Source of the DNA: an uncultured Planctomycetota bacterium
GTDB lineage: Bacteria; Planctomycetota; Planctomycetia; Isosphaerales; Isosphaeraceae
DNA: 64,000 bases
Assembly: GCA_963845755.1 (NCBI GenBank)
Contig: CAWJTV010000034.1
Location: 480,001 to 544,000 of the forward strand
Reading direction: 5' to 3'
Position numbers and translations under genes: made by a program. Shown here in pieces: positions 40,328-55,626 of this stretch (position 1 is the first letter of the stretch; every line of letters starts with the position of its first letter). Below the pieces are notes generated by a model. That model was not told where the DNA came from. It saw only the letters and a list, made by a program, of their open reading frames with translations, and ran no database searches.

Positions 40328-40630
40328 GGCTGATCCTCCTTTCCTTCCCGACCGACCGGCTGCTCGATTTGCGATGTTAAACACTCGCTGGATAATCTAC
40401 CCCTCTCAACGCCAGATCGCCATGGTCGCGCGGGCTGTTCGAGCCGCGTTTACTGGAAGGCAATCCAATCAGAGAAATCGATTCAAGTACCCCAATCACT
40501 ACAAGCTTGATATACGGATTATTTTCTCCAGATTGCCGATGGGTTCGTTCGGTTCGTTTGCTGCATCTTGTCATTGAAGCGACCTCACACCGAACTCCAA
40601 TCGTTAAATTTTGCCGGATCGATACAATCG

Positions 40631-40782
40631 TGGCTTCGTTTGATCGATTTTCCGCGTCGGTTTCGTTCGCGGACCCTGTGGTTGACCGTGGTGTCTGGCT
40701 TCGTTTGATTGATTTCGGATGCGCGCGTCATCCTCTTGCATCAATCCATGCGATAGTCCCTGGCTTCGTTTTGATGATTTCG
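40631..40782. repeat. three degenerate ~22-bp direct repeats at exact 65-bp period
   Basis: TGGCTTCGTTT starts at 40631, 40696 and 40761, each followed by a GAT..GATTT(T)C-like tail. Confidence 0.65.
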
Positions 40783-41451
40783 CCATGCTGATCTCGCAGT
40801 CGTGATTTCCGGGTGTGGGCTGTCGATGAGGTGGGCGCGCACGATGACTTACAGATATTATGGGACACTTGAGCGTGCCTGGCCACGAATTCTGGAAGAA
40901 AAGTTGGCGGCGACCGGGTGTCGCCGAGGGCGAGTCGGGAAGATATACCTTTGAAGGTCAAGGGCCGCCGGCCGTGATGGCGGTATGGGAGGAGTTCCGC
41001 TCGAGGTGTGGGCTGGCCATCAGTGCAACGTCGAACCGGGCGGACAGCACGGCGAGCCGGTGGCCCAGGCATGGGCTCACGTCCTCGGCTCGCCATCTGA
41101 ACACCAGAGCAGGGGGAACGGCCGGCGGATCATGCCCTGCTGCGCCGATTATCACGCGGGTGATCTGCTCGCGGCCTTGGTCAGGTCCCGGGTGACCATC
41201 GGAAGCCGTAGAGAAGGCGCCCGCATCAGGGGTCTTCGTCCGCCGGAACAGGGAAGAGTGCAGAGGGGGTTCGGGGGAGAGGGGACGTGTCACGCGACAC
41301 CAAGTTGGATCGCGAAATCCCGACACCCGGTTTGATCGTACCTGCTCATCGGTGCGCGTTTATGGGTCGAAGGTGACAGTCGTTCAGGAGCGAAAAGGGC
41401 GGCAGCGTCAGAGCCGATCCAGCCCGCAGAGGGCCAGAGGCAACCCCTGTG

Positions 41452-41481
41452 GGTGCTTCGGTGTCGTCGGACGAATGGCAC
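41452..41481 (+). other. putative recombination core site S1
   Basis: GGTGCTTCGGT-GTCGTCGG-ACGAATGGCAC. Confidence 0.65.
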
Positions 41482-41695
41482 TAGCTTAAGCGTAACACTT
41501 TATGCCATTTGAGCTTAAGTGCGGATCTCCAGACATATTTTCAACGATTGTAGATATTCGCTTGTAATATTGATAGAGAGTTTAGCCTCAAATCAAGCCA
41601 CATGGACCCAACCTCATATCCTCCTGAATACTATTAATGGGCAAACCGTCGCGACACAACTCGTTTTCTGAAAACGAGTTACGCTTAAGCTAGTG
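41471..41695. repeat. non-coding linker L1 (233 bp including 44134-44141); right arm interrupted by intron copy 1
   Basis: terminal inverted repeat ACGAATGGCACTAGCTTAAGCGTAAC; AT-rich core homologous to L2. Confidence 0.8.
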
Positions 41696-44133
41696 ATGAG
41701 GTAGGCGGCCAGCCCCTTGATCTCAAGGGAATCCAACCGCCCCCTCCCGAACCGGACAGGCACGTTTTCGTGCATCCGGCTCTCCAGACACAGGATCTAC
41801 ATTTGTGTCACGGTCCAACCCGGTATGCCAGGTCCGCCAGTCGGAGGCCATCATATTCTCCTCGGTGGATCTTACGGTGGCACTCTCGGCAGACGGGCAC
41901 TTGCTTCCGGTTCTGGAGTCGCATCAGCCAGGCAAACCCACCGACAGGTTTGCCCTCCATCTTTCGGATGTGACGGACGTGGTGCATCTGCACCCCGACC
42001 GTTGTTTCGCAGATGATGCATGGGTGGTCCAGGCGGGACCTTGTCCGGAATCGGACGTGCATCTCCAGTGGGTCGGTTTGATCTCTTCCCGTTAGAAATG
42101 CCGTGGGGTTCCGGGTCCAGTCGGAGTTGGCTTTGAAGAAGGTGTTCCGTTCCTTCCCCTCGCCGTCTTTCCAGTTGAATTGCAGAGTGCGTCCGTGTTC
42201 GCAGAGGAGCTGCTTAACGGGCTTCTGCAACTTGTGGGCTAAGGTCTTCGCAAGTGACAAATGCAGGATGTACTGGATACGGCTCATGGAGGCGAAGTTG
42301 TCAGCAAACCTGTAGTAGTTCAACAGCCCCCAATTGGTGCTGTTGAACAGTTCGATGATGTGCTTCACCTCCAGGCAGACCCACGCTGTCTTGGATCGGG
42401 CGATGCCCTCACCGTCACAGAAGCCCTTCTGGTGAAGACGCTTGACCAGTTTCCTGATCGGCGCTCGCATCAGCGGGCTCCACCCCGTACACCGGCGCCG
42501 GTAGTGCCGCCGTTGGTTGTGGCAGTGGGTAACCTTGGGCTGTGGGTTGACGGCCCCCACCTGAAGCCGCGTCCCGAGAAAGAAGGCCTCCTCGGTCTTG
42601 GCGTGAGTGACGACCGTCTTTTCCTGGCTGAGTTGCAGTTTCAGCCTGTCCCATAGGAACGCCTGAATCTCGTCCTTGATCTGTTCGGCCAGGGACCTCG
42701 GCCCCGTGACGCCGACGATCCAATCGTCTGCATATCTGATGTATTTGACTCTGACGAAGCCAGGGTCAAACGTGTCCATCGACGGGAGAGATCGCATCTG
42801 TTTCGTCAAAGCGCGAATCTCCGGCGTCATGATCCCACCTGACCGTTTCAACGCTCGCTGCCTGCGATAGTTGATCCGGTGATACTCGGGGCTGTCCTTC
42901 CGCTTGCTGCCCTTCTCGTACTTCTGCTGTAGTCCCTCGACGAAGAGGTCGAGTTCGTGCAGGTAGATGTTGGCGAGGATAGGGCTGGCCACGCTCCCCT
43001 GCGGGGTCCCGATAAACGAGGCCCCCGGTTCCTTCCTCCATAGGTAGCCTGCCCGGAGTGCTTTCCAGATCAGGCCGATGAAGCGTTCGTCCGAGATCCT
43101 CTTCCGGATCAGGGAAACCAGGACGTGGTGATCGATCTCGTCGAAGCAGGATTTTATATCCCCTTCGATGATCCACGTCACACCAGACCACTTGGTCCTG
43201 AACTCATGCAGGGCCGTGTGAGTCCCTCGACCAGGCCGAAAACCATGGCTACAGTCGCTAAAGGTAGGCCCTTTCGGACTGTCGTAGATCGCTTCGAGGA
43301 TCACATGGATGACCTCTTGGACGATCTTGTCCCTTGGGGATGAGATGCCGAGAGGCCGCATCTTGCCATTTGCCTTGGGAATGTATTCCCGCCGCGAAGG
43401 CTTGAATTGGAAACCCTCGTCTCGCAGGGTCGCCACGATGTCGTCGATGGCATCCATGGAGAACCCATCGAGAGTCATCCCGTCGGTGCCAGGAGTCAAG
43501 TTCCCGGGAGCGGATTTGATTTTCTCATACGCGACGATGTAGAGATCCGTCTTGTAGAGGAGTCGATACAGATCCGCGTTGACCCAGTTGAGGTCCGTGT
43601 TGCACTTCCGCAGTGCTTCAAGCCTGAGTAGGGCTGAATGACTCATCCGAGTCACCCCGTTCTTGGTGAAGCCCTGTGTCCTGTCCCCCTTGGGCCGATG
43701 CCTACTACGGGGACTCTGTCGCCTTGGGCATTGCTGCCGTTAGGCGATCCCGTGGTTGTCGGTCAGGTCCGGTCCACGTTGAGGGCCTCCGTTCATCCCT
43801 TGCCCCTGCTCATTGCAGGGTGTGTCCTGCCGGAAGATCACGGAGGTGAATGGCATGCCCCCGTGAGACAGGAATCCGGGTTTCAGCGTCATTCCCGGCG
43901 GTGATCGAGCACACCCACTGGGACTGGAGTTCAAGCAATCCAGCCTTACCCATGCGTGGCCTAACTTGCGAACGTCTCTCGGCCCTTTGACGCTGGGCCT
44001 CACGTCGCTTCTTCCGCATGCTGTTGTCCCCTCGATCCTTTCGGTTGAAGGTCAGCGGAACGTTTGACCCGCCTTCTTCCAGCGGGGTCGGGGCACTCCC
44101 GACAAGACCAGACAAACCTTAGCCACGGCGCAC
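41696..44133 (-). mobile_element. group IIA (ML class, LtrB-like) intron, copy 1, 2,438 nt
   Basis: 5' GTGCG at 44133-44129; domain V/VI and terminal ...CCTACCTCAT at 41696; removal restores GAATGG|CACTAG. Confidence 0.93.
41808..43646 (-). CDS. ltrA: intron-encoded reverse transcriptase/maturase with HNH endonuclease (LtrA-like)
   Basis: RPLGI, GTPQGSVASPILANIYL, YIRYADD, C-terminal CIIC..HH..CRECH; ATG at 43646 (ORF track uses GTG 43655). Confidence 0.93.
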   Translation of the reverse strand: MSHSALLRLEALRKCNTDLNWVNADLYRLLYKTDLYIVAYEKIKSAPGNLTPGTDGMTLDGFSMDAIDDIVATLRDEGFQFKPSRREYIPKANGKMRPLGISSPRDKIVQEVIHVILEAIYDSPKGPTFSDCSHGFRPGRGTHTALHEFRTKWSGVTWIIEGDIKSCFDEIDHHVLVSLIRKRISDERFIGLIWKALRAGYLWRKEPGASFIGTPQGSVASPILANIYLHELDLFVEGLQQKYEKGSKRKDSPEYHRINYRRQRALKRSGGIMTPEIRALTKQMRSLPSMDTFDPGFVRVKYIRYADDWIVGVTGPRSLAEQIKDEIQAFLWDRLKLQLSQEKTVVTHAKTEEAFFLGTRLQVGAVNPQPKVTHCHNQRRHYRRRCTGWSPLMRAPIRKLVKRLHQKGFCDGEGIARSKTAWVCLEVKHIIELFNSTNWGLLNYYRFADNFASMSRIQYILHLSLAKTLAHKLQKPVKQLLCEHGRTLQFNWKDGEGKERNTFFKANSDWTRNPTAFLTGRDQTDPLEMHVRFRTRSRLDHPCIICETTVGVQMHHVRHIRKMEGKPVGGFAWLMRLQNRKQVPVCRECHRKIHRGEYDGLRLADLAYRVGP

Positions 44134-44159
44134 CCATTCGTCGATCACACCGAGGCAAG
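44134..44159 (-). other. putative recombination core site S2 (A-arm split by intron)
   Basis: (GTG|)CCATTCGT-CGATCAC-ACCGAGGCAAG. Confidence 0.6.
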
Positions 44160-44380
44160 CAAGCAGTAGAGGGATGACGATCTGCCTGGCTCCGCGCGGC
44201 GGTTGCGGCGCGGGGGCGTTCCGTTCACGATTGACCCGCCAGGTCTTCGGTCTCGCGTCCATCCTCGGATCCTCTCCTGTGGTAAGAAGAAGGATGACGA
44301 AGAGGCCGCCAGCCGGATACCCGGTCCTTCAATACCTGCAATTCGGTAGGATCAGGAGAATCGCAAGGGAGCCTCGCATC

Positions 44381-45163
44381 ATGAGCATCTTCGACCGATT
44401 CAAATTGACGGGAAAGCGTCTCTTCATCACGGGAGGTAGTCGCGGCTTGGGACGGGAGATGGCACTCGCGATCGCCGAGGCCGGCGCCGACGTGATCCTC
44501 GTTGGCCGCGACCCGGCAGGTTTGGAGAAGGCAGCCGGCGACATCCGCGCCCTGGGCCGCCAATGCTGGACCCTCGCGGCGGACGTCGGAAAGCCGGCCG
44601 AATGCGAAGAGGCGTGCCGGTTGGCTCTGGATCATCACGGCCCGATCGACATTCTGATCAACAACGTGGGCGGCCGGCACGAGAACATCCCCACGGAAGC
44701 GATGTCGCTCGACAAATGGCGCGAGCTGATCGACCTGAACCTCACCAGCTGCATGCAATGTACGAAATGGCTCGGCGCGGCGATGATCGAGCGCGGCGGG
44801 GGCGGGCGAATCATTAACATCGCTTCGATCAACGCGCTCGTGGCGGGGCGTGGCATCACGGGCCGGCACTACGAGACAGCGAAGGCGGCGATGCTTCAGT
44901 TCACCCGCGCGGTCGCGGCCGACTGGGCGGTGCACAAGATCACGGTAAACGCCATCCTGCCGGGCGGCTTCATGACAGAGGCGAACCAGCGCTGGTCCGA
45001 AATCCATCCGGAGGTGATCGAGCAGTTCCGCGCCAATATCCCGCTGGGCGATTTCGGCCAGCCGGAGGATCTTGGGCCGCTCGCGGTGTACCTGGCCAGC
45101 GACGCCTCGCGCTACATGACCGGGGCAGCCCTGGTGATCGACGGCGGGTACACGTTGTGGTAG
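44381..45163 (+). CDS. SDR family NAD(P)-dependent oxidoreductase (cargo 1)
   Basis: TGGSRGLG, DILINNVG, INIAS, YETAK (YxxxK), VIDGG. Confidence 0.92.
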   Translation: MSIFDRFKLTGKRLFITGGSRGLGREMALAIAEAGADVILVGRDPAGLEKAAGDIRALGRQCWTLAADVGKPAECEEACRLALDHHGPIDILINNVGGRHENIPTEAMSLDKWRELIDLNLTSCMQCTKWLGAAMIERGGGGRIINIASINALVAGRGITGRHYETAKAAMLQFTRAVAADWAVHKITVNAILPGGFMTEANQRWSEIHPEVIEQFRANIPLGDFGQPEDLGPLAVYLASDASRYMTGAALVIDGGYTLW

Positions 45164-45215
45164 GAAGACTGACGCGGGAATGTGATCACGCCAGTCTCCT
45201 TGTCGAGGACTTGAA

Positions 45216-46035
45216 ATGAACGGACCCAGAACGGTCAGATCGTTCGTGTCAAGTAGCCCGGAGTATCATCGGGCATTCCAAGCGTTCCTGGCCCACACTG
45301 ACCAGAAGGACAAGGCCAGGGAGTGGATAAGGCACGAGGTCGACGGGCTCGCGAATCGGTCGGTCATGATTGACGCGGGCGCCGGCAGCGGGCGGCTCAC
45401 TTCGTGGCTCACTCCGCTGTTCGGGACTGTGATCGCCATCGAACCGAACCCCTCCATGGAGTCGGAGCTTCGGATCGCTTGCCCAGACGCGGTGGTGATC
45501 GCCGCCACGATCGCCTCGGCCTCACCGCCGACGGCAGGGGACTTCGTGCTGTGCTCGCACGTGTTCTATCACATCCCCCGGTCGCAGTGGGAAGCGACCT
45601 TGCTGCACTTGATGGGCTGGCTAGCTCCCGGGGGCGTTCTCGCCGTCGCGTTGCAGAACCCCCGTGCTGACTGCATGCGCATGGTCAACCATTTCCTCGG
45701 GGGCCGCCTCGATCTGAGCGAGCTTTGCCCGATGGCGAACGCAGAGGATGGTGAGTATGAGGCACGGCTGGAGACCGTTCCTGCTCACATTCGCGCGCCC
45801 GACCTCGGGACAGCCTGCGAGATCGCCGAATTCTTCCTGAATGACCTGCCCATGCCCGCGCCACCGAGGTGGGAGGACCTGGAGCATTACGTTGAACGAG
45901 CATTTCAAGCAGGCCGAAGGTGGTTACCAGCTCTCGTGTCATCAAGACTTCTTACGAGTCTCCAGATCGATTGGATCGCCTCTATCGGCGATAAGAGCGG
46001 ACCGTCCGCACGGGGCGCGGCGGTCGTCCCCTTGA
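45216..46035 (+). CDS. class I SAM-dependent methyltransferase (cargo 1), frameshift near 45900
   Basis: MIDAGAGSG, IAIEPN, DFVLCSHVFYHI, LAPGG. Confidence 0.82.
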
Positions 46036-46199
46036 TCTGGGGGCGAGAGCTTCTGCGCCAAACGGTGCAGGGACTGGACCACCGTTCGGCTCGTCTCGGG
46101 AGGCCGACGGTTGATTGGCGGCTGGATGGACCGGACTATCTGGGTCTGGGACGCGACGCCGCTGCCGGAATAGCAGCGAGGGTGGGGACACTGTTCGCA

Positions 46200-46400
46200 G
46201 TCGTCCTCAATCGGCCGGCTCCGCCCGTGCAGACCTCACCTTCCTCGCGATGACGCGGCAGCGGTTCGGTCGGCCGCAAGAGGCCCGAGAGGGCCTCGAC
46301 CGCCTCCGGGAGAACCTGGAGGACCCAGCCCGCGCTAGATGGCGAGGCCCCGGGCTTCTTGCGCGAGGCCCGAGCGGTCTTTGCCGCTTCACGCCGTTGG
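46200..46400 (+). pseudogene. remnant resembling the TPR-like C-terminus of planctomycete Ser/Thr kinases
   Basis: DLTFLAMTRQRFGRPQEAREGLDRLRE; no intact start. Confidence 0.4.
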
Positions 46401-46481
46401 CCTGCGAGCCACGCTGCTGAACGATCAGCCCGGCGTGCCGCGTCGCCGTGATCTCGCCGCCGTGGAGCGCCTTCCTTTTGC

Positions 46482-46746
46482 GCGCGTCGGTCCGACGACA
46501 CGAATGGCACTAGCCTAAGCGTAAGTCGCTGATACTAAGTGACTTGTGTCTGTGACGGTCGGGGTTCTTGCAGAGAATACCCGACTATGATCATGATTTG
46601 ACGATGGGCTAGCCGGGAAACCAAGGCCTCAGATGGAGCCCCTAGGAATCCGGTCCATGGATCAAGGAAGTCCATTGTTTGCAAGTTCAATTTCTGCCAG
46701 AGGTTGCGCTTATGCTAGTGCCATTCGTGTCGTCGGACCGACGCGC
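46482..46746. repeat. linker L3 (46500-46728) with core sites S3 and S4 forming a 33-bp perfect inverted repeat
   Basis: GCGCGTCGGT-CCGACGAC-ACGAATGGCACTAGC at 46482-46514 and its exact reverse complement at 46714-46746. Confidence 0.85.
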
Positions 46747-46841
46747 AGAGAGCCGTTCCACAAGACGCCGGTGAATCCAGAACTAACCGCGTCCCTGTTC
46801 CCCTCCCTTGGATACAAATTCAAGAGGACTCGGTTTCACGC

Positions 46842-47389
46842 TCAAGCGAATCCCTTGTCTTTGAGCCACTTCTCAATCACAGATGGAAGGGTGGTGCCCG
46901 GGTTTCTCGTGTCGAAGGGCTTGTAGAGTTTGCCGTTCAGATCGGCTTGAAGGGTCTTGAGAGTCTTGTCCTTCAGCAGTAAGACCGGCTTGTTGAGGGC
47001 CATCATGTAGCCGACCTCTAGGCCGACATTGGGATTGAACTCCTCTTGCTCGATCCGATCGAAGATGGCGATGCCGAAGCCGCAGCCGTGCATGTAGGTC
47101 TTGATATTGGAGAAGGTGTCGTCGTCGTATTCCTTGTGATCGGCCCGCATGGCGGCAATTCCATGCTTTGCGGTCGTCTCCTGGATCACACGGACGATGT
47201 CACTGTGAGCGTCGGTCTCGGTGAACCGCATCATATGAAGGCGGCCTTGCGTGGGTCGGGATGCTCAGCCTGGAACGCCTGGAGGCTTTCTTGGATATCG
47301 GGCGGCAAAGATGGAAGGCTTGGCTTCGGCGGTAATGCTTTGCTTCTTCGTCCAGATGGGCGAGTCGAGACTGAACCTGGATCAGGCAT
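46842..47389 (-). CDS. nucleoside-deoxyribosyltransferase/TIR-like domain protein (cargo 2), frameshift near 47234; start uncertain
   Basis: AFI|MMRF, RAD, GIAIFD, NPNVGLEVGYMMALNKPVLLL, LQADL. Confidence 0.7.
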
Positions 47390-47565
47390 CTCAACGAGCG
47401 CAGCACTCGAATAGTTCGCCAGGCGCCGCCCCTTTCCTTCGTCCCACACGCATTCAAGATTGCTAAACATTGAGTCTACTTGCGCAGTATGGGTAAGCTG
47501 GCCCCCCCCTCAGACTACGCAGTCCGCTTGGAATATTAGCAATATCCCTCGGCAAAGACGAGGAA

Positions 47566-48660
47566 TCAGCTCGAGCCGAGTCCCTCATACTCGGGGGATA
47601 GCCGGTAACTCCGCGACTTCCTGGCCGGGTCAACCACGAGCACGAACCCGCCGCTCACCCATGAAGAGAGGATGTTCCGGGCCGTCCTCTGGGAGACGCC
47701 GAAGAGGCCCTCGACGTCGCGGCTGGTGATGACGACCGAGCGGCGGAAGAGCTCCAGGGCCCGGCGCCGGCGGGGGTCGAGGCGACGCAGCGCGGCCGAG
47801 TCATCCCTCATGCCCCGGTCGGCGGCCTCCCGGGCGCGGCGGCGGACGCTCTCGAAGCTGTCGGCCATGCCCGCGCAGAAGTATTCGACCCACGCCGTGA
47901 TGTCCGCCTCGGCACGGCCCTGATAGTAATTGTGCGACGGCCCGACCGCCAATGCCCGGTAGTAGGCCGACAGGTCTCTGGCGTAGTATTCTTCCAGCGA
48001 ATAGAGCCCCTTCAGGTCGTACCCGCCCCGGTGGAGGATCAGGGTCGTCAGGAGCCTCGCCGTGCGGCCGTTGCCGTCGTAGTAGGGGTGGATCGTGGCG
48101 AACTGGTAGTGGGCGATCCCGGCGCGGATCGGGCACGGGACGCCCTCGTGCTCGCTGCGCCGGAGCCAGTCGACGAGCTCCTCCATGAGCCGGGGGACAT
48201 CCGATGCCTCCGGGGGCATGTAGACGATCCGACGGCTGCCGGCGTCGCGGATCACGTTCTGCCCGCCCCGGTATGGGGTGGGCTTCTTCACCGCCTTGCC
48301 GCTGGCCATCACGAGGGCGTGAAGGGTTCGGACCTGGAGGTCCGTCACGTCCCCTCCCTGGGCCGCGAATCGTTCGAGCCGCTCGATCGCCGCGTAGTAG
48401 CCGAGGACCTCGGCCTCGTCTCGCTCCCGGCCCGGGAAATGCCTCCCCTGCTCGATCAACGAGGAGACCTCCTCCCGAGCGAGGCGGTTGCCCTCGATCA
48501 TCGTGGAGTAGTGGGTGGAGAAGAGCCGCGCGGTCTCGCGGAGGCCGGCGAGCACGGAGGACGTGATCGGCAGGTCCTCCACGGCCTGCCGGGCCGCCTC
48601 GATCCTCATGAGGTGGGTCGCGGTGCGGGGCGTGATCCGGTAGTTGGGCTCGAACGGCAT
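47566..48660 (-). CDS. Fic family protein with C-terminal HTH (cargo 2)
   Basis: STMIEGN; HPYYDGNGRTAR Fic motif. Confidence 0.92.
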   Translation of the reverse strand: MPFEPNYRITPRTATHLMRIEAARQAVEDLPITSSVLAGLRETARLFSTHYSTMIEGNRLAREEVSSLIEQGRHFPGRERDEAEVLGYYAAIERLERFAAQGGDVTDLQVRTLHALVMASGKAVKKPTPYRGGQNVIRDAGSRRIVYMPPEASDVPRLMEELVDWLRRSEHEGVPCPIRAGIAHYQFATIHPYYDGNGRTARLLTTLILHRGGYDLKGLYSLEEYYARDLSAYYRALAVGPSHNYYQGRAEADITAWVEYFCAGMADSFESVRRRAREAADRGMRDDSAALRRLDPRRRRALELFRRSVVITSRDVEGLFGVSQRTARNILSSWVSGGFVLVVDPARKSRSYRLSPEYEGLGSS

Positions 48661-48979
48661 TCGGCGGCACTTTCTCGGTCGGTTTCCTTGCCGTTATTGT
48701 GCCGTTAAAGTGCCGATAAATCAAGCGATCGGTGTGGGTCGAGGTAGGCACTCTGCTCACAACCTGGGACGCGTATCTGGATTGCGGCGTCGCCGGCGAG
48801 GCGGCGGGGGGTGAACGCCGACATTGCGATTAGTCCGACGCTTGGGCGGTCTAGACAAGCGCATGTCCCGCCGGGCCGGCTCGATGGCCGCCCCGCCCCG
48901 GGCCCGGCCCGGCCGATCGCCGGACGGAGCCGGTTCGTCCAACAGACGGGGCGGAGTCGGGCCGGAGCCGGCGACGTTG

Positions 48980-49005
48980 CTTGCTTCGGTGGGATCGACG
49001 AATGG
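48980..49005 (+). other. putative recombination core site S5 (A-arm split by intron)
   Basis: CTTGCTTCGGT-GGGATCG-ACGAATGG(|CAC). Confidence 0.65.
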
Positions 49006-51443
49006 GTGCGCCGTGGCTAAGGTTTGTCTGGTCTTGTCGGGAGTGCCCCGACCCCGCTGGAAGAAGGCGGGTCAAACGTTCCGCTGACCTTCAACCGAAA
49101 GGATCGAGGGGACAACAGCATGCGGAAGAAGCGACGTGAGGCCCAGCGTCAAAGGGCCGAGAGACGTTCGCAAGTTAGGCCACGCATGGGTAAGGCTGGA
49201 TTGCTTGAACTCCAGTCCCAGTGGGTGTGCCCGATCACCGCCGGGAATGACGCTGAAACCCGGATTCCTGTCTCACGGGGGCATGCCATTCACCTCCGTG
49301 ATCTTCCGGCAGGACACACCCTGCAATGAGCAGGGGCAAGGGATGAACGGAGGCCCTCAACGTGGACCGGACCTGACCGACAACCACGGGATCGCCTAAC
49401 GGCAGCAATGCCCAAGGCGACAGAGTCCCCGTAGTAGGCATCGGCCCAAGGGGGACAGGACACAGGGCTTCACCAAGAAAGGGGTGACTCGGATGAGTCA
49501 TTCAGCCCTACTCAGGCTTGAAGCACTGCGGAAGTGCAACACGGACCTCAACTGGGTCAACGCGGATCTGTATCGACTCCTCTACAAGACGGATCTCTAC
49601 ATCGTCGCGTATGAGAAAATCAAATCCGCTCCCGGGAACTTGACTCCTGGCACCGACGGGATGACTCTCGATGGGTTCTCCATGGATGCCATCGACGACA
49701 TCGTGGCGACCCTGCGAGACGAGGGTTTCCAATTCAAGCCTTCGCGGCGGGAATACATTCCCAAGGCAAATGGCAAGATGCGGCCTCTCGGCATCTCATC
49801 CCCAAGGGACAAGATCGTCCAAGAGGTCATCCATGTGATCCTCGAAGCGATCTACGACAGTCCGAAAGGGCCTACCTTTAGCGACTGTAGCCATGGTTTT
49901 CGGCCTGGTCGAGGGACTCACACGGCCCTGCATGAGTTCAGGACCAAGTGGTCTGGTGTGACGTGGATCATCGAAGGGGATATAAAATCCTGCTTCGACG
50001 AGATCGATCACCACGTCCTGGTTTCCCTGATCCGGAAGAGGATCTCGGACGAACGCTTCATCGGCCTGATCTGGAAAGCACTCCGGGCAGGCTACCTATG
50101 GAGGAAGGAACCGGGGGCCTCGTTTATCGGGACCCCGCAGGGGAGCGTGGCCAGCCCTATCCTCGCCAACATCTACCTGCACGAACTCGACCTCTTCGTC
50201 GAGGGACTACAGCAGAAGTACGAGAAGGGCAGCAAGCGGAAGGACAGCCCCGAGTATCACCGGATCAACTATCGCAGGCAGCGAGCGTTGAAACGGTCAG
50301 GTGGGATCATGACGCCGGAGATTCGCGCTTTGACGAAACAGATGCGATCTCTCCCGTCGATGGACACGTTTGACCCTGGCTTCGTCAGAGTCAAATACAT
50401 CAGATATGCAGACGATTGGATCGTCGGCGTCACGGGGCCGAGGTCCCTGGCCGAACAGATCAAGGACGAGATTCAGGCGTTCCTATGGGACAGGCTGAAA
50501 CTGCAACTCAGCCAGGAAAAGACGGTCGTCACTCACGCCAAGACCGAGGAGGCCTTCTTTCTCGGGACGCGGCTTCAGGTGGGGGCCGTCAACCCACAGC
50601 CCAAGGTTACCCACTGCCACAACCAACGGCGGCACTACCGGCGCCGGTGTACGGGGTGGAGCCCGCTGATGCGAGCGCCGATCAGGAAACTGGTCAAGCG
50701 TCTTCACCAGAAGGGCTTCTGTGACGGTGAGGGCATCGCCCGATCCAAGACAGCGTGGGTCTGCCTGGAGGTGAAGCACATCATCGAACTGTTCAACAGC
50801 ACCAATTGGGGGCTGTTGAACTACTACAGGTTTGCTGACAACTTCGCCTCCATGAGCCGTATCCAGTACATCCTGCATTTGTCACTTGCGAAGACCTTAG
50901 CCCACAAGTTGCAGAAGCCCGTTAAGCAGCTCCTCTGCGAACACGGACGCACTCTGCAATTCAACTGGAAAGACGGCGAGGGGAAGGAACGGAACACCTT
51001 CTTCAAAGCCAACTCCGACTGGACCCGGAACCCCACGGCATTTCTAACGGGAAGAGATCAAACCGACCCACTGGAGATGCACGTCCGATTCCGGACAAGG
51101 TCCCGCCTGGACCACCCATGCATCATCTGCGAAACAACGGTCGGGGTGCAGATGCACCACGTCCGTCACATCCGAAAGATGGAGGGCAAACCTGTCGGTG
51201 GGTTTGCCTGGCTGATGCGACTCCAGAACCGGAAGCAAGTGCCCGTCTGCCGAGAGTGCCACCGTAAGATCCACCGAGGAGAATATGATGGCCTCCGACT
51301 GGCGGACCTGGCATACCGGGTTGGACCGTGACACAAATGTAGATCCTGTGTCTGGAGAGCCGGATGCACGAAAACGTGCCTGTCCGGTTCGGGAGGGGGC
51401 GGTTGGATTCCCTTGAGATCAAGGGGCTGGCCGCCTACCTCAT
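49006..51443 (+). mobile_element. group IIA (ML class, LtrB-like) intron, copy 2, 2,438 nt
   Basis: GTGCG at 49006; EBS2 near 49231-49238; delta/EBS1 TGCCATTC 49284-49291; domain V 51357-51390 (GAGCCGGATGCACGAAAACGTGCCTGTCCGGTTC); ends CCTACCTCAT at 51443. Confidence 0.93.
49493..51331 (+). CDS. ltrA: intron-encoded reverse transcriptase/maturase with HNH endonuclease (LtrA-like); translation identical to copy 1
   Basis: same motifs as copy 1; AAGGGGTG ribosome-binding site before ATG 49493. Confidence 0.93.
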   Translation: MSHSALLRLEALRKCNTDLNWVNADLYRLLYKTDLYIVAYEKIKSAPGNLTPGTDGMTLDGFSMDAIDDIVATLRDEGFQFKPSRREYIPKANGKMRPLGISSPRDKIVQEVIHVILEAIYDSPKGPTFSDCSHGFRPGRGTHTALHEFRTKWSGVTWIIEGDIKSCFDEIDHHVLVSLIRKRISDERFIGLIWKALRAGYLWRKEPGASFIGTPQGSVASPILANIYLHELDLFVEGLQQKYEKGSKRKDSPEYHRINYRRQRALKRSGGIMTPEIRALTKQMRSLPSMDTFDPGFVRVKYIRYADDWIVGVTGPRSLAEQIKDEIQAFLWDRLKLQLSQEKTVVTHAKTEEAFFLGTRLQVGAVNPQPKVTHCHNQRRHYRRRCTGWSPLMRAPIRKLVKRLHQKGFCDGEGIARSKTAWVCLEVKHIIELFNSTNWGLLNYYRFADNFASMSRIQYILHLSLAKTLAHKLQKPVKQLLCEHGRTLQFNWKDGEGKERNTFFKANSDWTRNPTAFLTGRDQTDPLEMHVRFRTRSRLDHPCIICETTVGVQMHHVRHIRKMEGKPVGGFAWLMRLQNRKQVPVCRECHRKIHRGEYDGLRLADLAYRVGP

Positions 51444-51668
51444 CACTAGCTTAAGCGTAACAGCTTATGCCATTGGAGTTTAGGCACGGGTCGTCAGGCA
51501 TATTTTCAGCGATTGCAAATATTCGCTTGTAATATTGATAGAGGATTTGGCCTCAATTCAAGCCACATGGACCCAGCCTTATATCCTCCTGAGTACTACT
51601 GATGGGATAAACATTGCGACGCAACTCATTTTCTAAAAAAGAGTTACGCTTAAGCTAGTGCCATTCGT
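51444..51668. repeat. non-coding linker L2 (233 bp including 48998-49005); left arm interrupted by intron copy 2
   Basis: same terminal inverted repeat and length as L1, with a diverged but alignable core. Confidence 0.8.
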
Positions 51669-51686
51669 GGGATCGACCGAAGCACC
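51658..51686 (-). other. putative recombination core site S6
   Basis: GTGCCATTCGT-GGGATCG-ACCGAAGCACC. Confidence 0.65.
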
Positions 51687-51928
51687 TTCGAAACATGCCT
51701 TGTGGCTGGACGCCACTCTGTGCGTCTGTCACCTTCGACTCGTGAACGGGCACCGATGAAGAGGTTCGATCAAACCGGGTGTCGGGATTTCGCGATCCAA
51801 CTTGGTGTCGCGTGACAGGACGCGTCTCCTCCGAAACTCATCACGAGCGCGGGCGAAGCCCGCCACCGCTGGCGTTGGCGCCTAGAGCGATTCACGCTTG
51901 GGTGGCTGACGGTCGGGGGACAGAGCCC

Positions 51929-53325
51929 CATACGAAACTGGTTAAGCCGCAATCCTTGGTGCGAACAGCAGTTGTCGCGTACTGGGGCGTTTCTTCCGTC
52001 GGCCACGCCGGGGCAAACGACTCAAGCGGACTCGCAGTTTCTCCAACACCCGCCGCAACCGCGCTGGGTCGCTCAGCGCCGCGGCGATTTGCAATGCCAG
52101 CCGCTTCACCCGCCGAGCCGCCCGGACCAGGCTGATCCCACACAGGGGCCCTCCGCGCAGCAGCGTCCCCCAGTGCTGCACCAGCATCCCCAACAGCTTG
52201 GCATACCTCTCGCACAACACCCGCTGGCCCCGCCGACCCCGCGTCCGGTCCACACCCCCTCCCGATTTCCACGCCTTATACAACAACTCCACCTGCCAGC
52301 GGACACGATAAAGCACGCAGATTTCTTCAATTGTCAACGTGCCCGCCGGCAAATCGGTGATCAGCACCGTCCCCTGGCACATCACGCGCTGGCGATCACT
52401 CAGCGTCTTCCCCTTCTTCCGCAGCTCCTTTCGCAGCCGACGCAATCGGATCTCGGCCACCTCCCGGGGCACCCGCAGGGCCACCAACCGACAGCCCAAG
52501 GTCGCCTTGGTCCCCAGGACGACCGTAGTGTCGATCCGACCCTCCGTTTGCCGATCCAACCACGCGCTGATATTGACCCCACCCGGCTCACCGGCTCGCA
52601 CTTTCAACTGCGCCGGGACGCGGCTGATAAAGTGAATCCCCTTCTGCTGATCGGCGGCCAGTCGTTCCAGGTCGAAAAAGCCCAGGTCGCACAACCGCAG
52701 GCTGTTGGCAGGTAAGGGCGCCAGCTCCTCGGCCAGGGTTCGCTCAGAATCGCGCGCCGGTGCCGGTGGCTGAATCTCCAAGCGGCCGGTGGTCACATCC
52801 CACCGCGTCAAGAGCTTCCATCCCGCTTGACCGCCTTGGGGATCAGAGCCACCACAGCCGGGGAAGGATCCGGCCAATTCGGCCGGCAACCCGACGATGG
52901 TGACGTCCTCGACGGAAACGGTCGCGAAGCGGCGCAACAGCGGAATCATCTCGGGCCGGGCCGCGAACAGCAGGTTCAACGCCTTCTCGAGCACCCGACG
53001 CAAACAGTCCGCGGCGCGGGCGTTGAAGCGTTCGTTGAAAGCCGCCTCGCTGATGTCGAGGTCTTCAATGATCTCCTCAATGGTGGCGTCGGGATTCTCC
53101 AGCCAATGAAAGACCAGGGCCTGGACGAATCGGGACCCGGTGAGCTTGCGCTGGCGCCGAATCATGCCGGAATCCTTGGCAGCCTCATCGGCGTCGGTGG
53201 TGAAGAGGGCTTGCAAGGCATCAGCCAGTTGATCGATCGTGATGGTCATCCGGTACTCCTCCGGTGCGGAAATACTGATCAAATGTATTGTACCAGAGGA
53301 GTTACTTCTTAACCAGTTTCTCATG
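51929..53325 (-). mobile_element. IS4-family insertion sequence (~1.4 kb)
   Basis: terminal inverted repeats CATACGAAACTGGTTAAG / CATGAGAAACTGGTTAAG (16 of 18 match). Confidence 0.85.
51942..53249 (-). CDS. IS4 family transposase
   Basis: RRQRKL, DLGFFD, YRVRWQVELLYKAWKS (YREK motif). Confidence 0.9.
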   Translation of the reverse strand: MTITIDQLADALQALFTTDADEAAKDSGMIRRQRKLTGSRFVQALVFHWLENPDATIEEIIEDLDISEAAFNERFNARAADCLRRVLEKALNLLFAARPEMIPLLRRFATVSVEDVTIVGLPAELAGSFPGCGGSDPQGGQAGWKLLTRWDVTTGRLEIQPPAPARDSERTLAEELAPLPANSLRLCDLGFFDLERLAADQQKGIHFISRVPAQLKVRAGEPGGVNISAWLDRQTEGRIDTTVVLGTKATLGCRLVALRVPREVAEIRLRRLRKELRKKGKTLSDRQRVMCQGTVLITDLPAGTLTIEEICVLYRVRWQVELLYKAWKSGGGVDRTRGRRGQRVLCERYAKLLGMLVQHWGTLLRGGPLCGISLVRAARRVKRLALQIAAALSDPARLRRVLEKLRVRLSRLPRRGRRKKRPSTRQLLFAPRIAA

Positions 53326-53383
53326 GGGCGTCAGCCCCCTGTCCGGTGAGCGACGGACCTCCAAGACAGGGGGCTGACGCCCC
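53325..53383. repeat. GC-rich hairpin (19-bp stem) between two IS elements
   Basis: GGGGCGTCAGCCCCCTGTC...GACAGGGGGCTGACGCCCC. Confidence 0.75.
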
Positions 53384-54765
53384 TGTCACCCGACAGTAGG
53401 TTTTGCCGCGAATCCCGACAAAAAGGTTTTGCCGCCTCGTGGCGGGGGGTAGTCTGTGATGGTCCGATCCTGCCAACTCCTGCGAGGGTCACTATGCCCG
53501 CTCCACTCCCGCCGACAACCCGGCGCCTCATCTTGCTACGATCCCGTCGCGGCCAGACCGCGGCGGCCATCGCGGACGCCCTGCATCTCTGCCCCCGCAC
53601 GGTCCGGCACCTGCTCCAGCGGGCTCGCGACCCGGCGAGCCCTCAGGGGACCGCTTATCGGCCCGGTCCGGGGCGGCCCGCCGACGACCACCCGCTCCGA
53701 GCCCAGGCCCTGGCCCTGCGACAGCAGCATCCGACCTGGGGAGCGGGCTACATCCGCGTCCGCCTGGCCACCGAGGCCGACCCGGCGACGGTGCCTAGCG
53801 AGCGCGCACGTTGCGGCGCTGGTTCCGCCGCCAGCGGCACCCGCCTGCGGCGGGGGGACGGCGGTCGCCGTCGGCCGCCGACCGTGCCATCGCCCCGCAT
53901 GACATCTGGCAGAGGGACGCCGCGGAGCAACTCCGCACGGCCGACGGCCAGGGCGCTGCTGGCTGCGGCTGGTGGATGAATATACGGGGGCCTTCCTGGG
54001 CACCACGGTTTTCCCCCCACTACTACTGGGCCCACGTCCCCGAGGCCGAGGTGCAGCGGCACTTGCACCGCGCCTTCGAGCGGTGGGGGCTGCCGCGCCG
54101 CATGCGGGTCGATAACGGCAAGCCGTGGGGGTCCTGGAGCGACCTGCCCCCCGCGCTGGCGTTGTGGCTGATCGGCCTGGGGGTCGGCGTGATCTGGAAC
54201 GACCCGCGGCGGCCGCAACAGAACGGCGTGGTGGAGCGGTCGCAGGGGACGGCCAAGCGGTGGGCGGAGCCGCACGCCTGCGGCAACCCGGCGGAGCTGC
54301 AGGCCCGCCTGGACGCCGACGACCGGTTGCAGCGGGAGCGGTATCCCGTCGCCGGGGGACACAGCCGTTGGGAGCTGTTCCCGGGTCTGGCGCACAGCGG
54401 CCGCGCCTACCGCGAGGCGGACGAGGCCGGCGCGTGGTGCCGGGGGCGGGTGCGCGACCACCTAGCGGAGTGGGCCGTGCCGCGCCGGGTGGACAGCCAG
54501 GGAAAGGTGTCGATCTATAACAGGAATATCTATGTAGGAGTGTTATATGCGGGCCGGGACGTCTGGGTCCAGTTCGACCCGGGGCACGGCGAGTGGCTGA
54601 TCAACGACGGCGGGGGCCAGCAGCTGCGGGCCCGGCCGGCCCCCGAGATCGACGCGGAGTCGATCCGCGGGTTGCGATTGTCGGGACGGAAGTAGGGACC
54701 GCCGGGTGTCCATGCGGCAAAACCTTTATGTCGGGATTCGCGGCAAAACCTACTGTCGGGTGACA
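53384..54765 (+). mobile_element. IS481-like insertion sequence (1,382 bp)
   Basis: ~52-bp terminal inverted repeats TGTCACCCGACAGTAGGTTTTGCCGCGAATCCCGACA...; GCCCC duplication at 53379-53383 and 54766-54770. Confidence 0.88.
53494..54695 (+). CDS. HTH + integrase-core (DDE) transposase, frameshifted
   Basis: N-terminal HTH, HPTWGA, WQRD, RVDNGKPWG, PQQNGVVERS. Confidence 0.8.
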
Positions 54766-55626
54766 GCCCCCCGCTCGCCCGGACCGGCCCTTCTGGGACA
54801 GACTCTTATTGCGGGCTTCCCAAATCACCTCTGTGTTTCGGTTCTCCCCGTACGGGGATGACCTGTCCGTTTCATCAGTGAATCACCGTTTACGGAGTAC
54901 GCCGCAGACCAGACGGCTCGGCTGCATGGCGGTTAAAGACTGCGCGGTCGCTTGGCTTCGTTTTGCAGAATTCAGGATGTGCTGCGCGGCGTTTTGGCTC
55001 GTTTCGCGGGTTCGGCATCCGGCAGGACGAGGATTCTTGGCTTCGTTTCAGCGATTCCGCGCGGCACGCTTCGCATTCCAGTGCGATCTCTCGTTGAAGT
55101 ACAAGAATATCGTGCGTGGATTAATAGTTCCTTGCACCCAAGATCTCAAGTGAGAATATTCCTTCATGACTGAGTGAACCCAAAGCGAGCGTGCTCGCAT
55201 TTTACCCGAATGGAGGCACCGATCGCATCGAACCGTCCTGGCAGACGACTTCCCGGGACTCAAAGCGGAAAACCTCGACCCGAGACGGGTGGTCGGTTGC
55301 ACGCACCCTGCGAATCCGCGGGGGATCCTCCTGACCAATCTCGGCCCATTAGCGAACCTCATATTCTTCAGGATGCCGCAACTTGGAAAAAACGTTAATG
55401 CATTTCGGGCGAATTGGGCTCGTTTATTGATTCAAGTCCCTACCTGACAAGGAAATAAAATCTTCGAAAACTTTTTCGGGCCGGTGGACTGATTCCTGTG
55501 CGCTGCCGGTCGGCCAACGCGCGTGCTCGCGTCCGATCCGGCCAACCCGCGTCACGATCGTGGCGATCACGTCCGATCGATCCGGCCTGCTCATCGATAT
55601 CGATGAGACTCGGGATCCCTCGTTCG

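Follow-up and report, generated by a model that had tools for sequence, protein, structure and literature searches.

What do pairs of identical short spacers record when they flank small linkers without genes? The question is raised by a window of 64,000 nucleotides, part of contig C34 of an uncultured planctomycete of the Isosphaeraceae (genome G000, a 14.3-Mb assembly in 49 contigs, 88% complete), in which three linkers (L1-L3), two cargo segments and six spacers (S1-S6) are nested within one block. The arm on the linker side of a spacer is called A and the arm on the palindrome side B; a complete palindrome has a core of GT, an 8- or 7-nt spacer and AC, i.e. 12 bp in the 8-class and 11 bp in the 7-class. 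A sequence-only reading of the window had taken the spacer pairs as records of integration, either by crossover with a circle or by insertion with target duplication. We find that they are very probably target-site duplications (TSDs) of miniature inverted-repeat transposable elements (MITEs) of the IS4 type. The spacer pairs are thus ordinary transposition scars, a layer of a known kind that is ISRm22-like. The palindromes that served as targets are less ordinary, and the value of the spacer pairs lies in what they point to.

All six spacers are present where they had been placed. GGGATCG stands in exact direct repeat around L2 (S5 = S6), S1 and S4 form a direct repeat around L1, cargo 1 and L3, S3 is the reverse complement of S1 and S4, and S2 resembles S5 in inverted orientation, with one mismatch. 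Removal of L2 restores the expected palindrome, provided that an intron inside the left end of L2 is taken out as well. The S5 = S6 match is informative because this core occurs at just three of the 92 sites in G000, two of which are S5 and S6 themselves; the S1 = S4 match is weak because their core, also found in S3, is the commonest one (39 of 92 sites). Genome-wide, 39 ends lie in such sites in G000, and 22 of them make up 11 adjacent left/right pairs; an exact direct repeat of 11 or 12 bp was found in 6/11 pairs, against a mean of 2.4 over 20,000 shuffles of the 22 ends (P = 0.007), so that spacers at paired ends match above chance. The proposal that linkers are inserted in palindromic B-spacer-B sites also stands. 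Empty sites are real: 24 exact ones occur in G000 and 0 on the reversed genome. An empty allele in another genome, G093 (locus L123), has the same GGGATCG loop as S5/S6 and a similar right flank.

The linkers, of 225-229 bp, are MITEs of an IS4-subgroup element with ends GAATGGCACTAGCTTAAG. Pairing all related ends in G000 sets the element boundary at GAATGG, 2 bp inside the A arm; the AC and GT of the arms therefore belong to the duplication, whose length is 11-12 bp (GT, spacer and AC) instead of the 7-8 bp first suggested. A 12-bp repeat is likewise found outside elements on contigs C2, C12, C42 and C47. The linkers are short and non-coding, carry the terminal inverted repeats (TIRs) of an autonomous insertion sequence (IS), and are multicopy with TSDs, as in the definition of a MITE that we take, together with that of the transporter IS (tIS), from PMC9330008; copies of L1 with flanking TSDs are present on C2 and C47 (99% identity), and L2 is 86% identical to L1. 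The genome scan found an IS4-family transposase gene between paired A arms on C47 (C47:276274-278103), with a flanking 12-bp repeat; its open reading frame (ORF) scores 212.7 against NF033592 (cut-off 115). End signature, duplication length and NF033592/YREK are the basis of the subgroup assignment. We propose that the DDE transposase of this C47 partner acts in trans on the MITEs, favouring symmetric arm-GT-N7/8-AC-arm targets and duplicating their central 11 or 12 bp; the target pattern is observed, and the action of the enzyme would account for it. L2 would then be a plain insertion.

Related elements behave in the same manner at other targets. Sister families with related ends have 10-11-bp repeats of unrelated, non-palindromic targets at five loci in G000, and transposase-bearing relatives also duplicate unrelated targets. 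Paired ends were recognized at 24 of 63 homolog loci, with a 10-12-bp repeat in 15 of the 24. A wider end pattern yields 62 ends in all; the palindrome accounts for 30 of these, a looser GT-N7/8-AC site for 18 and other positions for 14. The MITEs are found in both orientations relative to the core. Named relatives of the G000 elements come mostly from planctomycetes. Sister IS4-subgroup elements and MITEs in other targets lie at C3:216792, C11:690168, C22:135111, C34:680142 and C43:95017, some of them in GGGTCAG-type palindromes.

Two published systems are close to the window MITEs. With the IS4 subgroup (De Palmenaer et al. 2008, PMC2266710, chiefly its Table 1) the window MITEs share the end signature -AATR--------WTW, the duplication range of 10-13 bp (11-12 bp at the 6/11 pairs) and a DDE/YREK-type transposase (NF033592); they differ in being gene-less copies with a strong preference for one palindrome family, and the gene-bearing partner, at 1.83 kb, exceeds the 1.4-1.65 kb listed there. 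ISRm22 of Sinorhizobium meliloti, as described by Tobes and Pareja (2006, PMC1525189), is also an IS4-family element on the axis of a dispersed palindrome. Its repeat is 6 bp long instead of 11-12 bp, and its target is a repetitive extragenic palindromic (REP) sequence linked to a REP-associated tyrosine transposase (RAYT), whereas the MITEs here target a polarised pair of module-boundary sites.

Several observations weigh against the MITE interpretation. The C47 transposase has FREK instead of YREK and includes apparently frameshifted stretches, which points to possible inactivity or mis-assembly; at the YREK position, 52 homolog loci have 35 Y, 3 F and 14 unreadable residues. Some of the homolog loci share a genome, and their counts are thus not independent. 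The 5/11 end pairs that have no repeat need a secondary rearrangement, which we reconstructed for the window only. Public sequencing runs gave small shares of up to 0.16, from other organisms, with no reads of the source strain and no junction evidence. End pairs without a repeat have a parallel in ISRm22, where three of nine copies have unmatched repeats, ascribed in PMC1525189 to recombination between copies.

An alternative delimitation of the linker, as a CTAG-duplicating element in an A-CTAG-A palindrome, was rejected: no empty palindrome of that form exists, and relatives set the boundary at GAATGG. The CTAG of the IS4 TIR is occupied by an IS630-like element, a second TIR parasite, at C34:545758 and C9:310504.

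The features of the block are collected in the table. Insertion of a MITE would divide a palindrome into an outer half and a cargo-side half, which matches the arrangement seen: S1 and S6 are outer halves, S4 and S5 the cargo-side halves of cargo 2, and S2 and S3 those of cargo 1, reversed. The L1-cargo 1-L3 block may have arisen by joint action of two MITEs, along one of two routes: (i) a composite of L1, cargo 1 and L3 landed backwards in an 8-class site, which would make S1/S4 the TSD; or (ii) the inner ends of L1 and L3, within a pre-existing tandem array, attacked the upstream 8-class site and inverted cargo 1, which would make S1/S3 the TSD. Rearrangement by inside ends is known for Tn10, according to PMC9330008. 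Because S1, S3 and S4 carry the commonest core, no choice is made between the composite and the inversion; flank similarity, compared for S1/S3 and S1/S4, leans weakly and not decisively to S3. Linker-cargo-linker composites, as proposed earlier, are thus able to account for the flipped spacers, and the objection raised at that time to a strict XerC/XerD-type mechanism for the linkers is borne out.

Table. Features of the block and its surroundings in the window; core coordinates count GT and AC in
Feature	Position	Strand	Core	Remarks
GGACG, 5-bp direct repeat, left copy	41283..41287	+		outside outermost end; identical to 51818-51822
Left TGT-type terminal repeat, 51 bp	41288..41338	+		perfect inverted copy at 51767-51817
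IS66-type left end (Y8), about 104 bp	41352..41454	+		terminal GTA changed to GTG
S1, outer half of 8-class palindrome	41455..41472	+	41461-41472	arm and 12-bp core GTGTCGTCGGAC
L1, 229-bp IS4-type MITE	41473..44139			41473-41695 + 44134-44139; right TIR split by intron
Group II intron, copy 1	41696..44133	-		RT (reverse transcriptase)/maturase/HNH ORF 41808-43655
S2, cargo-side half of 7-class palindrome, inverted	44140..44156	-	44140-44150	11-bp core
Cargo 1, 8-to-7 module in inverted orientation	44157..46483			SDR dehydrogenase from 44381; SAM methyltransferase domain in ORF 45216-46253
S3, cargo-side half of 8-class palindrome, inverted	46484..46501	-	46490-46501	
L3, 225-bp IS4-type MITE, second subfamily	46502..46726			TIR match 21/24 bases
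S4, cargo-side half of 8-class palindrome	46727..46744	+	46727-46738	
Cargo 2, 8-to-7 module	46745..48982			Fic-domain ORF 47566-48660; ORF 46842-47234, weak nucleoside deoxyribosyltransferase-like match below cut-off
S5, cargo-side half of 7-class palindrome	48983..48999	+	48989-48999	left copy of 11-bp TSD GTGGGATCGAC
L2, 229-bp IS4-type MITE	49000..51666			49000-49005 + 51444-51666; left TIR split by intron
Group II intron, copy 2	49006..51443	+		ORF 49484-51331
S6, right copy of 11-bp TSD and outer arm of 7-class palindrome	51667..51683	+	51667-51677	
IS66-type right end (Y7), about 70 bp	51684..51753	-		terminal GTA changed to GTG
Right TGT-type terminal repeat	51767..51817	-		
GGACG, 5-bp direct repeat, right copy	51818..51822	+		
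Second IS4-family element	51925-53329			
HTH+rve (IS481-like) element	53384-54765			5-bp repeats; lies in a GC-rich palindrome of another family; several copies in G000
GGCTTCGTTT-type 23-nt repeat	40628-40782 and 54952-55059			five copies, three spaced 65 bp
Degenerate 7-class half-site and decayed IS4 end	60821 (C34:540821)			about 9 kb right of the block

Two of the linkers were invaded in turn. The interrupting sequences are copies of one group II intron of 2,438 bp, with two differences, mutually inverted, each splitting the A arm between GAATGG and CACTAG. A hairpin loop of the intron holds CCATTC (49286-49291), resembling exon-binding site 1 (EBS1) and complementary to the first six TIR bases; the G before it could pair with the first base of the 3' exon. 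Upstream, at about 49231-49236, an EBS2-like TCGATC is complementary to the 7-class core and contains one of the two differences between the copies. Of 12 intron-TIR junctions listed in G000, nine follow a forward 7-class core. The intron would thus have homed into the TIR beside 7-class cores after IS4 insertion, the TIR being bound by EBS1 and the core by EBS2, as the complementarity suggests. We take the intron to be of group IIA (LtrB-like), and the pairing roles presumably follow the rules of that group. It shares with LtrB-like introns an RT-maturase-HNH ORF, GTGCG..AT ends and EBS1/EBS2 plus delta-like pairing, but its site, the junction of 7-class core and IS4 TIR, is created only by IS4 insertion. 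Other copies, interrupted, truncated or stacked, occur at C11:964050, C36:44681 and C42:394860-405297.

We turn to the palindromes, which would be older than the MITEs. The 92 intact or half sites of G000 comprise 44 of the 8-class, nearly invariant, and 48 of the 7-class, with variable first bases; in another genus the two classes have different sequences that are equally fixed. Where neighbouring sites are no more than 30 kb apart, co-orientation prevails by 44:9 in G000 and by 35:1 in G093 (70 exact sites). Long same-strand gaps run mostly from an 8-class to a 7-class site (18 in G000, 13 in G093) and rarely the other way (3 and 6), and a GCGCAA-type arm extension faces the cargo at 19/29 intact 8-class and 18/32 intact 7-class sites. 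Short 7|8 and 7|7 junctions of 14-20 bp recur. The palindromes are intergenic, and different units carry unrelated cargo, such as kinases, WD40 proteins, restriction genes or metabolic operons. They are module boundaries, with two arm types, alternating modules and polarity, as in dif modules. Exact sites are absent from most of the near-complete genomes searched, and the palindromes are not chromosomal dif; the exact pattern has matches in 37 of 151 genomes of the class, mostly single, and controls also gave matches. None of 35 short loci has a conserved neighbour gene. Literature covering few subscription journals and no ISfinder yielded no description of the sites, the modules or the 348-aa protein considered below.

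Some further arrangements involve these or similar sites. (i) At L137, L178 and L155, 7-class sites recur with a 43-bp period and similar 20-nt linkers, which gives the look of a CRISPR array. (ii) At L274 and L275, in genome G237 of another family, three co-oriented palindromes, one with a different loop, flank single genes of 429-470 aa that have no Pfam or NCBIfam match, in a cassette-like arrangement. (iii) A separate repeat of about 90-120 bp heads genes inside some 8-to-7 modules (L136 and C39:193000-198700).

The 8-class sites bound the cargo modules on the left and the 7-class sites on the right, and these modules probably travel inside IS66-type ends. A motif starting with GTA is common outside the sites, about 104 bp from many 8-class and 69 bp from many 7-class sites, and the left-end region of the window was matched in 37 of 121 genomes of the family. 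Among 16 inward-facing motif pairs in relatives, three have an 8/8 direct repeat (3.8, 15.6 and 18.2 kb) and two have 7/8. Eight-bp repeats with a GTA-type TIR fit IS66, for which PMC11946415 gives ends GTAAGCG and an 8-bp repeat. A single-ORF IS66 in G000 has similar ends (GTA[GC]CCGTTCA, first 11 bases), and at metagenome locus L252, a partial case, a transposase C-terminus lies 187 bp from the end motif. Against this origin count the remaining 11/16 pairs, with 5/8 or fewer (several are not true partners), the G000 pairs, of which 0/4 have a full 8-bp repeat (best 6/8), and the failure to find any complete autonomous IS66 that carries the palindromes. Like IS66 and tIS, the cargo units have GTA-starting ends, an 8-bp duplication and passenger genes; they differ in lacking a transposase inside and in cargo that reaches 18 kb, limited by internal palindromes. 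For comparison, we presume that the labels ISBst12 group and mobile insertion cassettes (MIC) are also relevant.

In the window the IS66-type end pair agrees at 1/8 positions, and both ends are mutated and fused to the TGT-type repeats with their 5-bp duplication. These terminal repeats resemble the ends of the neighbouring HTH+rve element (53384-54765), which we take to be IS481-like, and G093 and G001 contain related TGT-bounded units whose cargo differs. The whole block would last have moved on these ends.

What built the modules? The attL/attR idea of the sequence-only reading may apply one level down, to the B-spacer-B palindromes, which were treated there as passive targets. A candidate enzyme emerged from a fragment on C25 with just an N-terminal SAM-like match; this fragment has homologs in three other site-bearing loci, and the full protein is 348 aa long, with 916 homologs and no sequence match among solved structures. 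The gene is present in 19/121 genomes of the family (partial query) and 39/401 of the class (profile; a phylum search with a single protein had missed homologs that the profile later caught), and no homolog was found in the viral contigs or PLSDB plasmids searched. Its model has the core-binding and catalytic fold of lambda Int, Xer and Tn1549 Int (Foldseek E 1e-5; against the lambda catalytic core, VIA Z 11.1, rmsd 2.8, 148 aligned). K202, R274, H295 and Y305 are invariant in 86 sequences.

It is tentatively conceivable, at rather less than an even balance, that the palindromes are dif-module-like recombination sites at which this protein exchanges like with like (8x8, 7x7), with crossover inside the core beside conserved (T)CG(G) bases. 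This concerns the target palindromes and is compatible with TSDs of MITEs at the linkers. Since the two ends of a module differ, cargo would not excise itself, yet could be swapped between carriers. The fixed polarity, the predominance of 8-to-7 gaps and the cargo-facing arm extension speak for it, as does a 2.6-kb module that G093 and G091 share at 99% identity, the DNA being unrelated immediately beyond an intact 8-class site. Of 26 family loci (29 less three duplicates), 18 have a C-terminus that can be read, and in 17 of these the stop codon of the 348-aa gene overlaps a 7-type site; upstream, at a distance of about 190-225 bp, 15/23 have an 8-type arm (shuffled rate 0.3%), a pattern chosen after inspection of these loci. 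The gene thus stands where 7|8 junctions have their short linker. Two 1,243-bp copies in G109, 99.9% identical, end at the arm of one site and inside the core of the other, and a relative, with the flank in common, has its breakpoint after the same three bases of the core. The recombinase fold and the invariant Lys, second Arg, His and Tyr agree with this role. IS4 ends are present in some sites beside the gene (L294, L296).

Other evidence speaks against it. The first catalytic Arg is replaced by an invariant Asp157 and the first His by Lys271, so that the full R-K-H-R-H/W-Y active site is incomplete, and the model is unreliable over residues 284-308. In other families (21 loci, strict test) the link to sites is mostly missing: 0/17 upstream and 1/19 downstream (3/19 by eye). 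The family loci are related, and 17/18 may therefore reflect one old capture. Among five site-rich genomes, G000, G093 and G065 have just fragments of the gene and G074 and G091 have none, while G109 and G128, with several intact copies, have one and zero canonical site matches. Nor are sites enriched near Pfam-detected integrases in G000 (3/92 within 2 kb versus 1.5 expected). A crossover of attP x attB type between the classes (8x7) was also considered and rejected: a search of 121 genomes gave a single occurrence of each of the two predicted hybrid cores, in neither case within a carrier, and this near absence favours like-with-like exchange.

The parallel with the pdif/dif modules of Acinetobacter, in so far as these are described in PMC13141974, includes inversely arranged two-arm sites, alternating module types and an exchange that here, too, would need like spacers, and pdif sites attract a specialised IS (IS1202, PMC10132070) as the palindromes here attract IS4 MITEs. 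For the palindromes here, exchange between like sites is suggested by comparative breakpoints. The palindromes have GC-rich arms and 7-8-nt spacers instead of XerC/XerD arms and a spacer of 6 (PMC13141974), are missing from most complete genomes, are carried in IS66-type ends, and have a candidate enzyme other than XerC/D. PMC3025954 gives no prediction of a planctomycete dif, and the palindromes may bear a degenerate relation to chromosomal dif.

A doubtful but serious alternative is that the palindromes are recombination or binding sites and the 348-aa gene a mere passenger or site-seeking element, the modules being built by another enzyme. The mismatch between site abundance and intact copies, the weak link outside the family and the missing catalytic Arg would all follow, and other integrases stand beside single sites in 3/20 distant loci. 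However, a gene that moves itself by the sites would more easily explain why its stop codon overlaps a site exactly and why copies end inside the core, and the integrases of G000 offer no better candidate. As regards integrons, integrases next to sites score far below the IntI cut-offs.

A REP-like nature of the palindromes, or an origin as plain sub-terminal hairpins in IS66-derived ends, is unlikely in our view; IS66 transposition would then have spread them, and only IS4 composites and precise excision would have reshuffled them. Their intergenic position, the tandem pairs 14-20 bp apart, reminiscent of bacterial interspersed mosaic elements (BIMEs), and the fixed distances inside IS66-type ends would suit such an origin. 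Yet no Y1/RAYT gene lies by any site (10 Y1 matches checked), many sites have non-IS66 outer flanks, and the exact two classes occur in few metagenome IS66-type ends (17/99). IS4 elements, moreover, insert either way and would scramble polarity, yet intact sites in G093 are almost uniformly co-oriented. The GTAG/CGTC tag of REPs and BIMEs was not found in the site flanks; tagged REPs are listed for Planctomycetes in PMC3733652, and the present sites are without these tags. A search for IS91-type transposases gave no match and is uninformative, the controls being silent too.

For the linkers, integration by crossover of an A-spacer-A circle junction with a B-spacer-B site, half of the mechanism first proposed (the other half, a MITE with target duplication, has stood), fits the paired spacers and the empty B sites but is very improbable, as the G000 sequence holds no A-spacer-A junction (one unrelated near-match) and the A arm proves to be the TIR of IS4-type elements, found at the flanks of DDE transposase genes and beside duplications of unrelated targets. 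In the C28:30745 region two IS4-type ends stand head to head, about five bases apart and with no core, possibly an end-to-end junction.

Returning to the recombinase, we suggest with due reserve that this planctomycete family practises dif-module-like shuffling, in which the atypical recombinase of a site-bounded 1.25-kb module would swap modules, IS66-type ends would move them, and IS4 MITEs and then the intron would parasitise the sites. The loading of passenger genes by non-autonomous elements is poorly understood; here many cargoes that are unrelated to one another have the same two sites as their ends, in strict polarity. Should the 348-aa protein recombine these sites, it would stand for a recombinase family whose active site is unusual and whose site pairs come ready-made and mutually incompatible, and for a natural cassette-exchange design based on like-with-like crossovers at two non-identical sites. 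Both the sites and the candidate enzyme are known in sufficient detail to be tested directly. Such a system would help to explain the shuffling of accessory genes in the 10-16-Mb genomes of planctomycetes.

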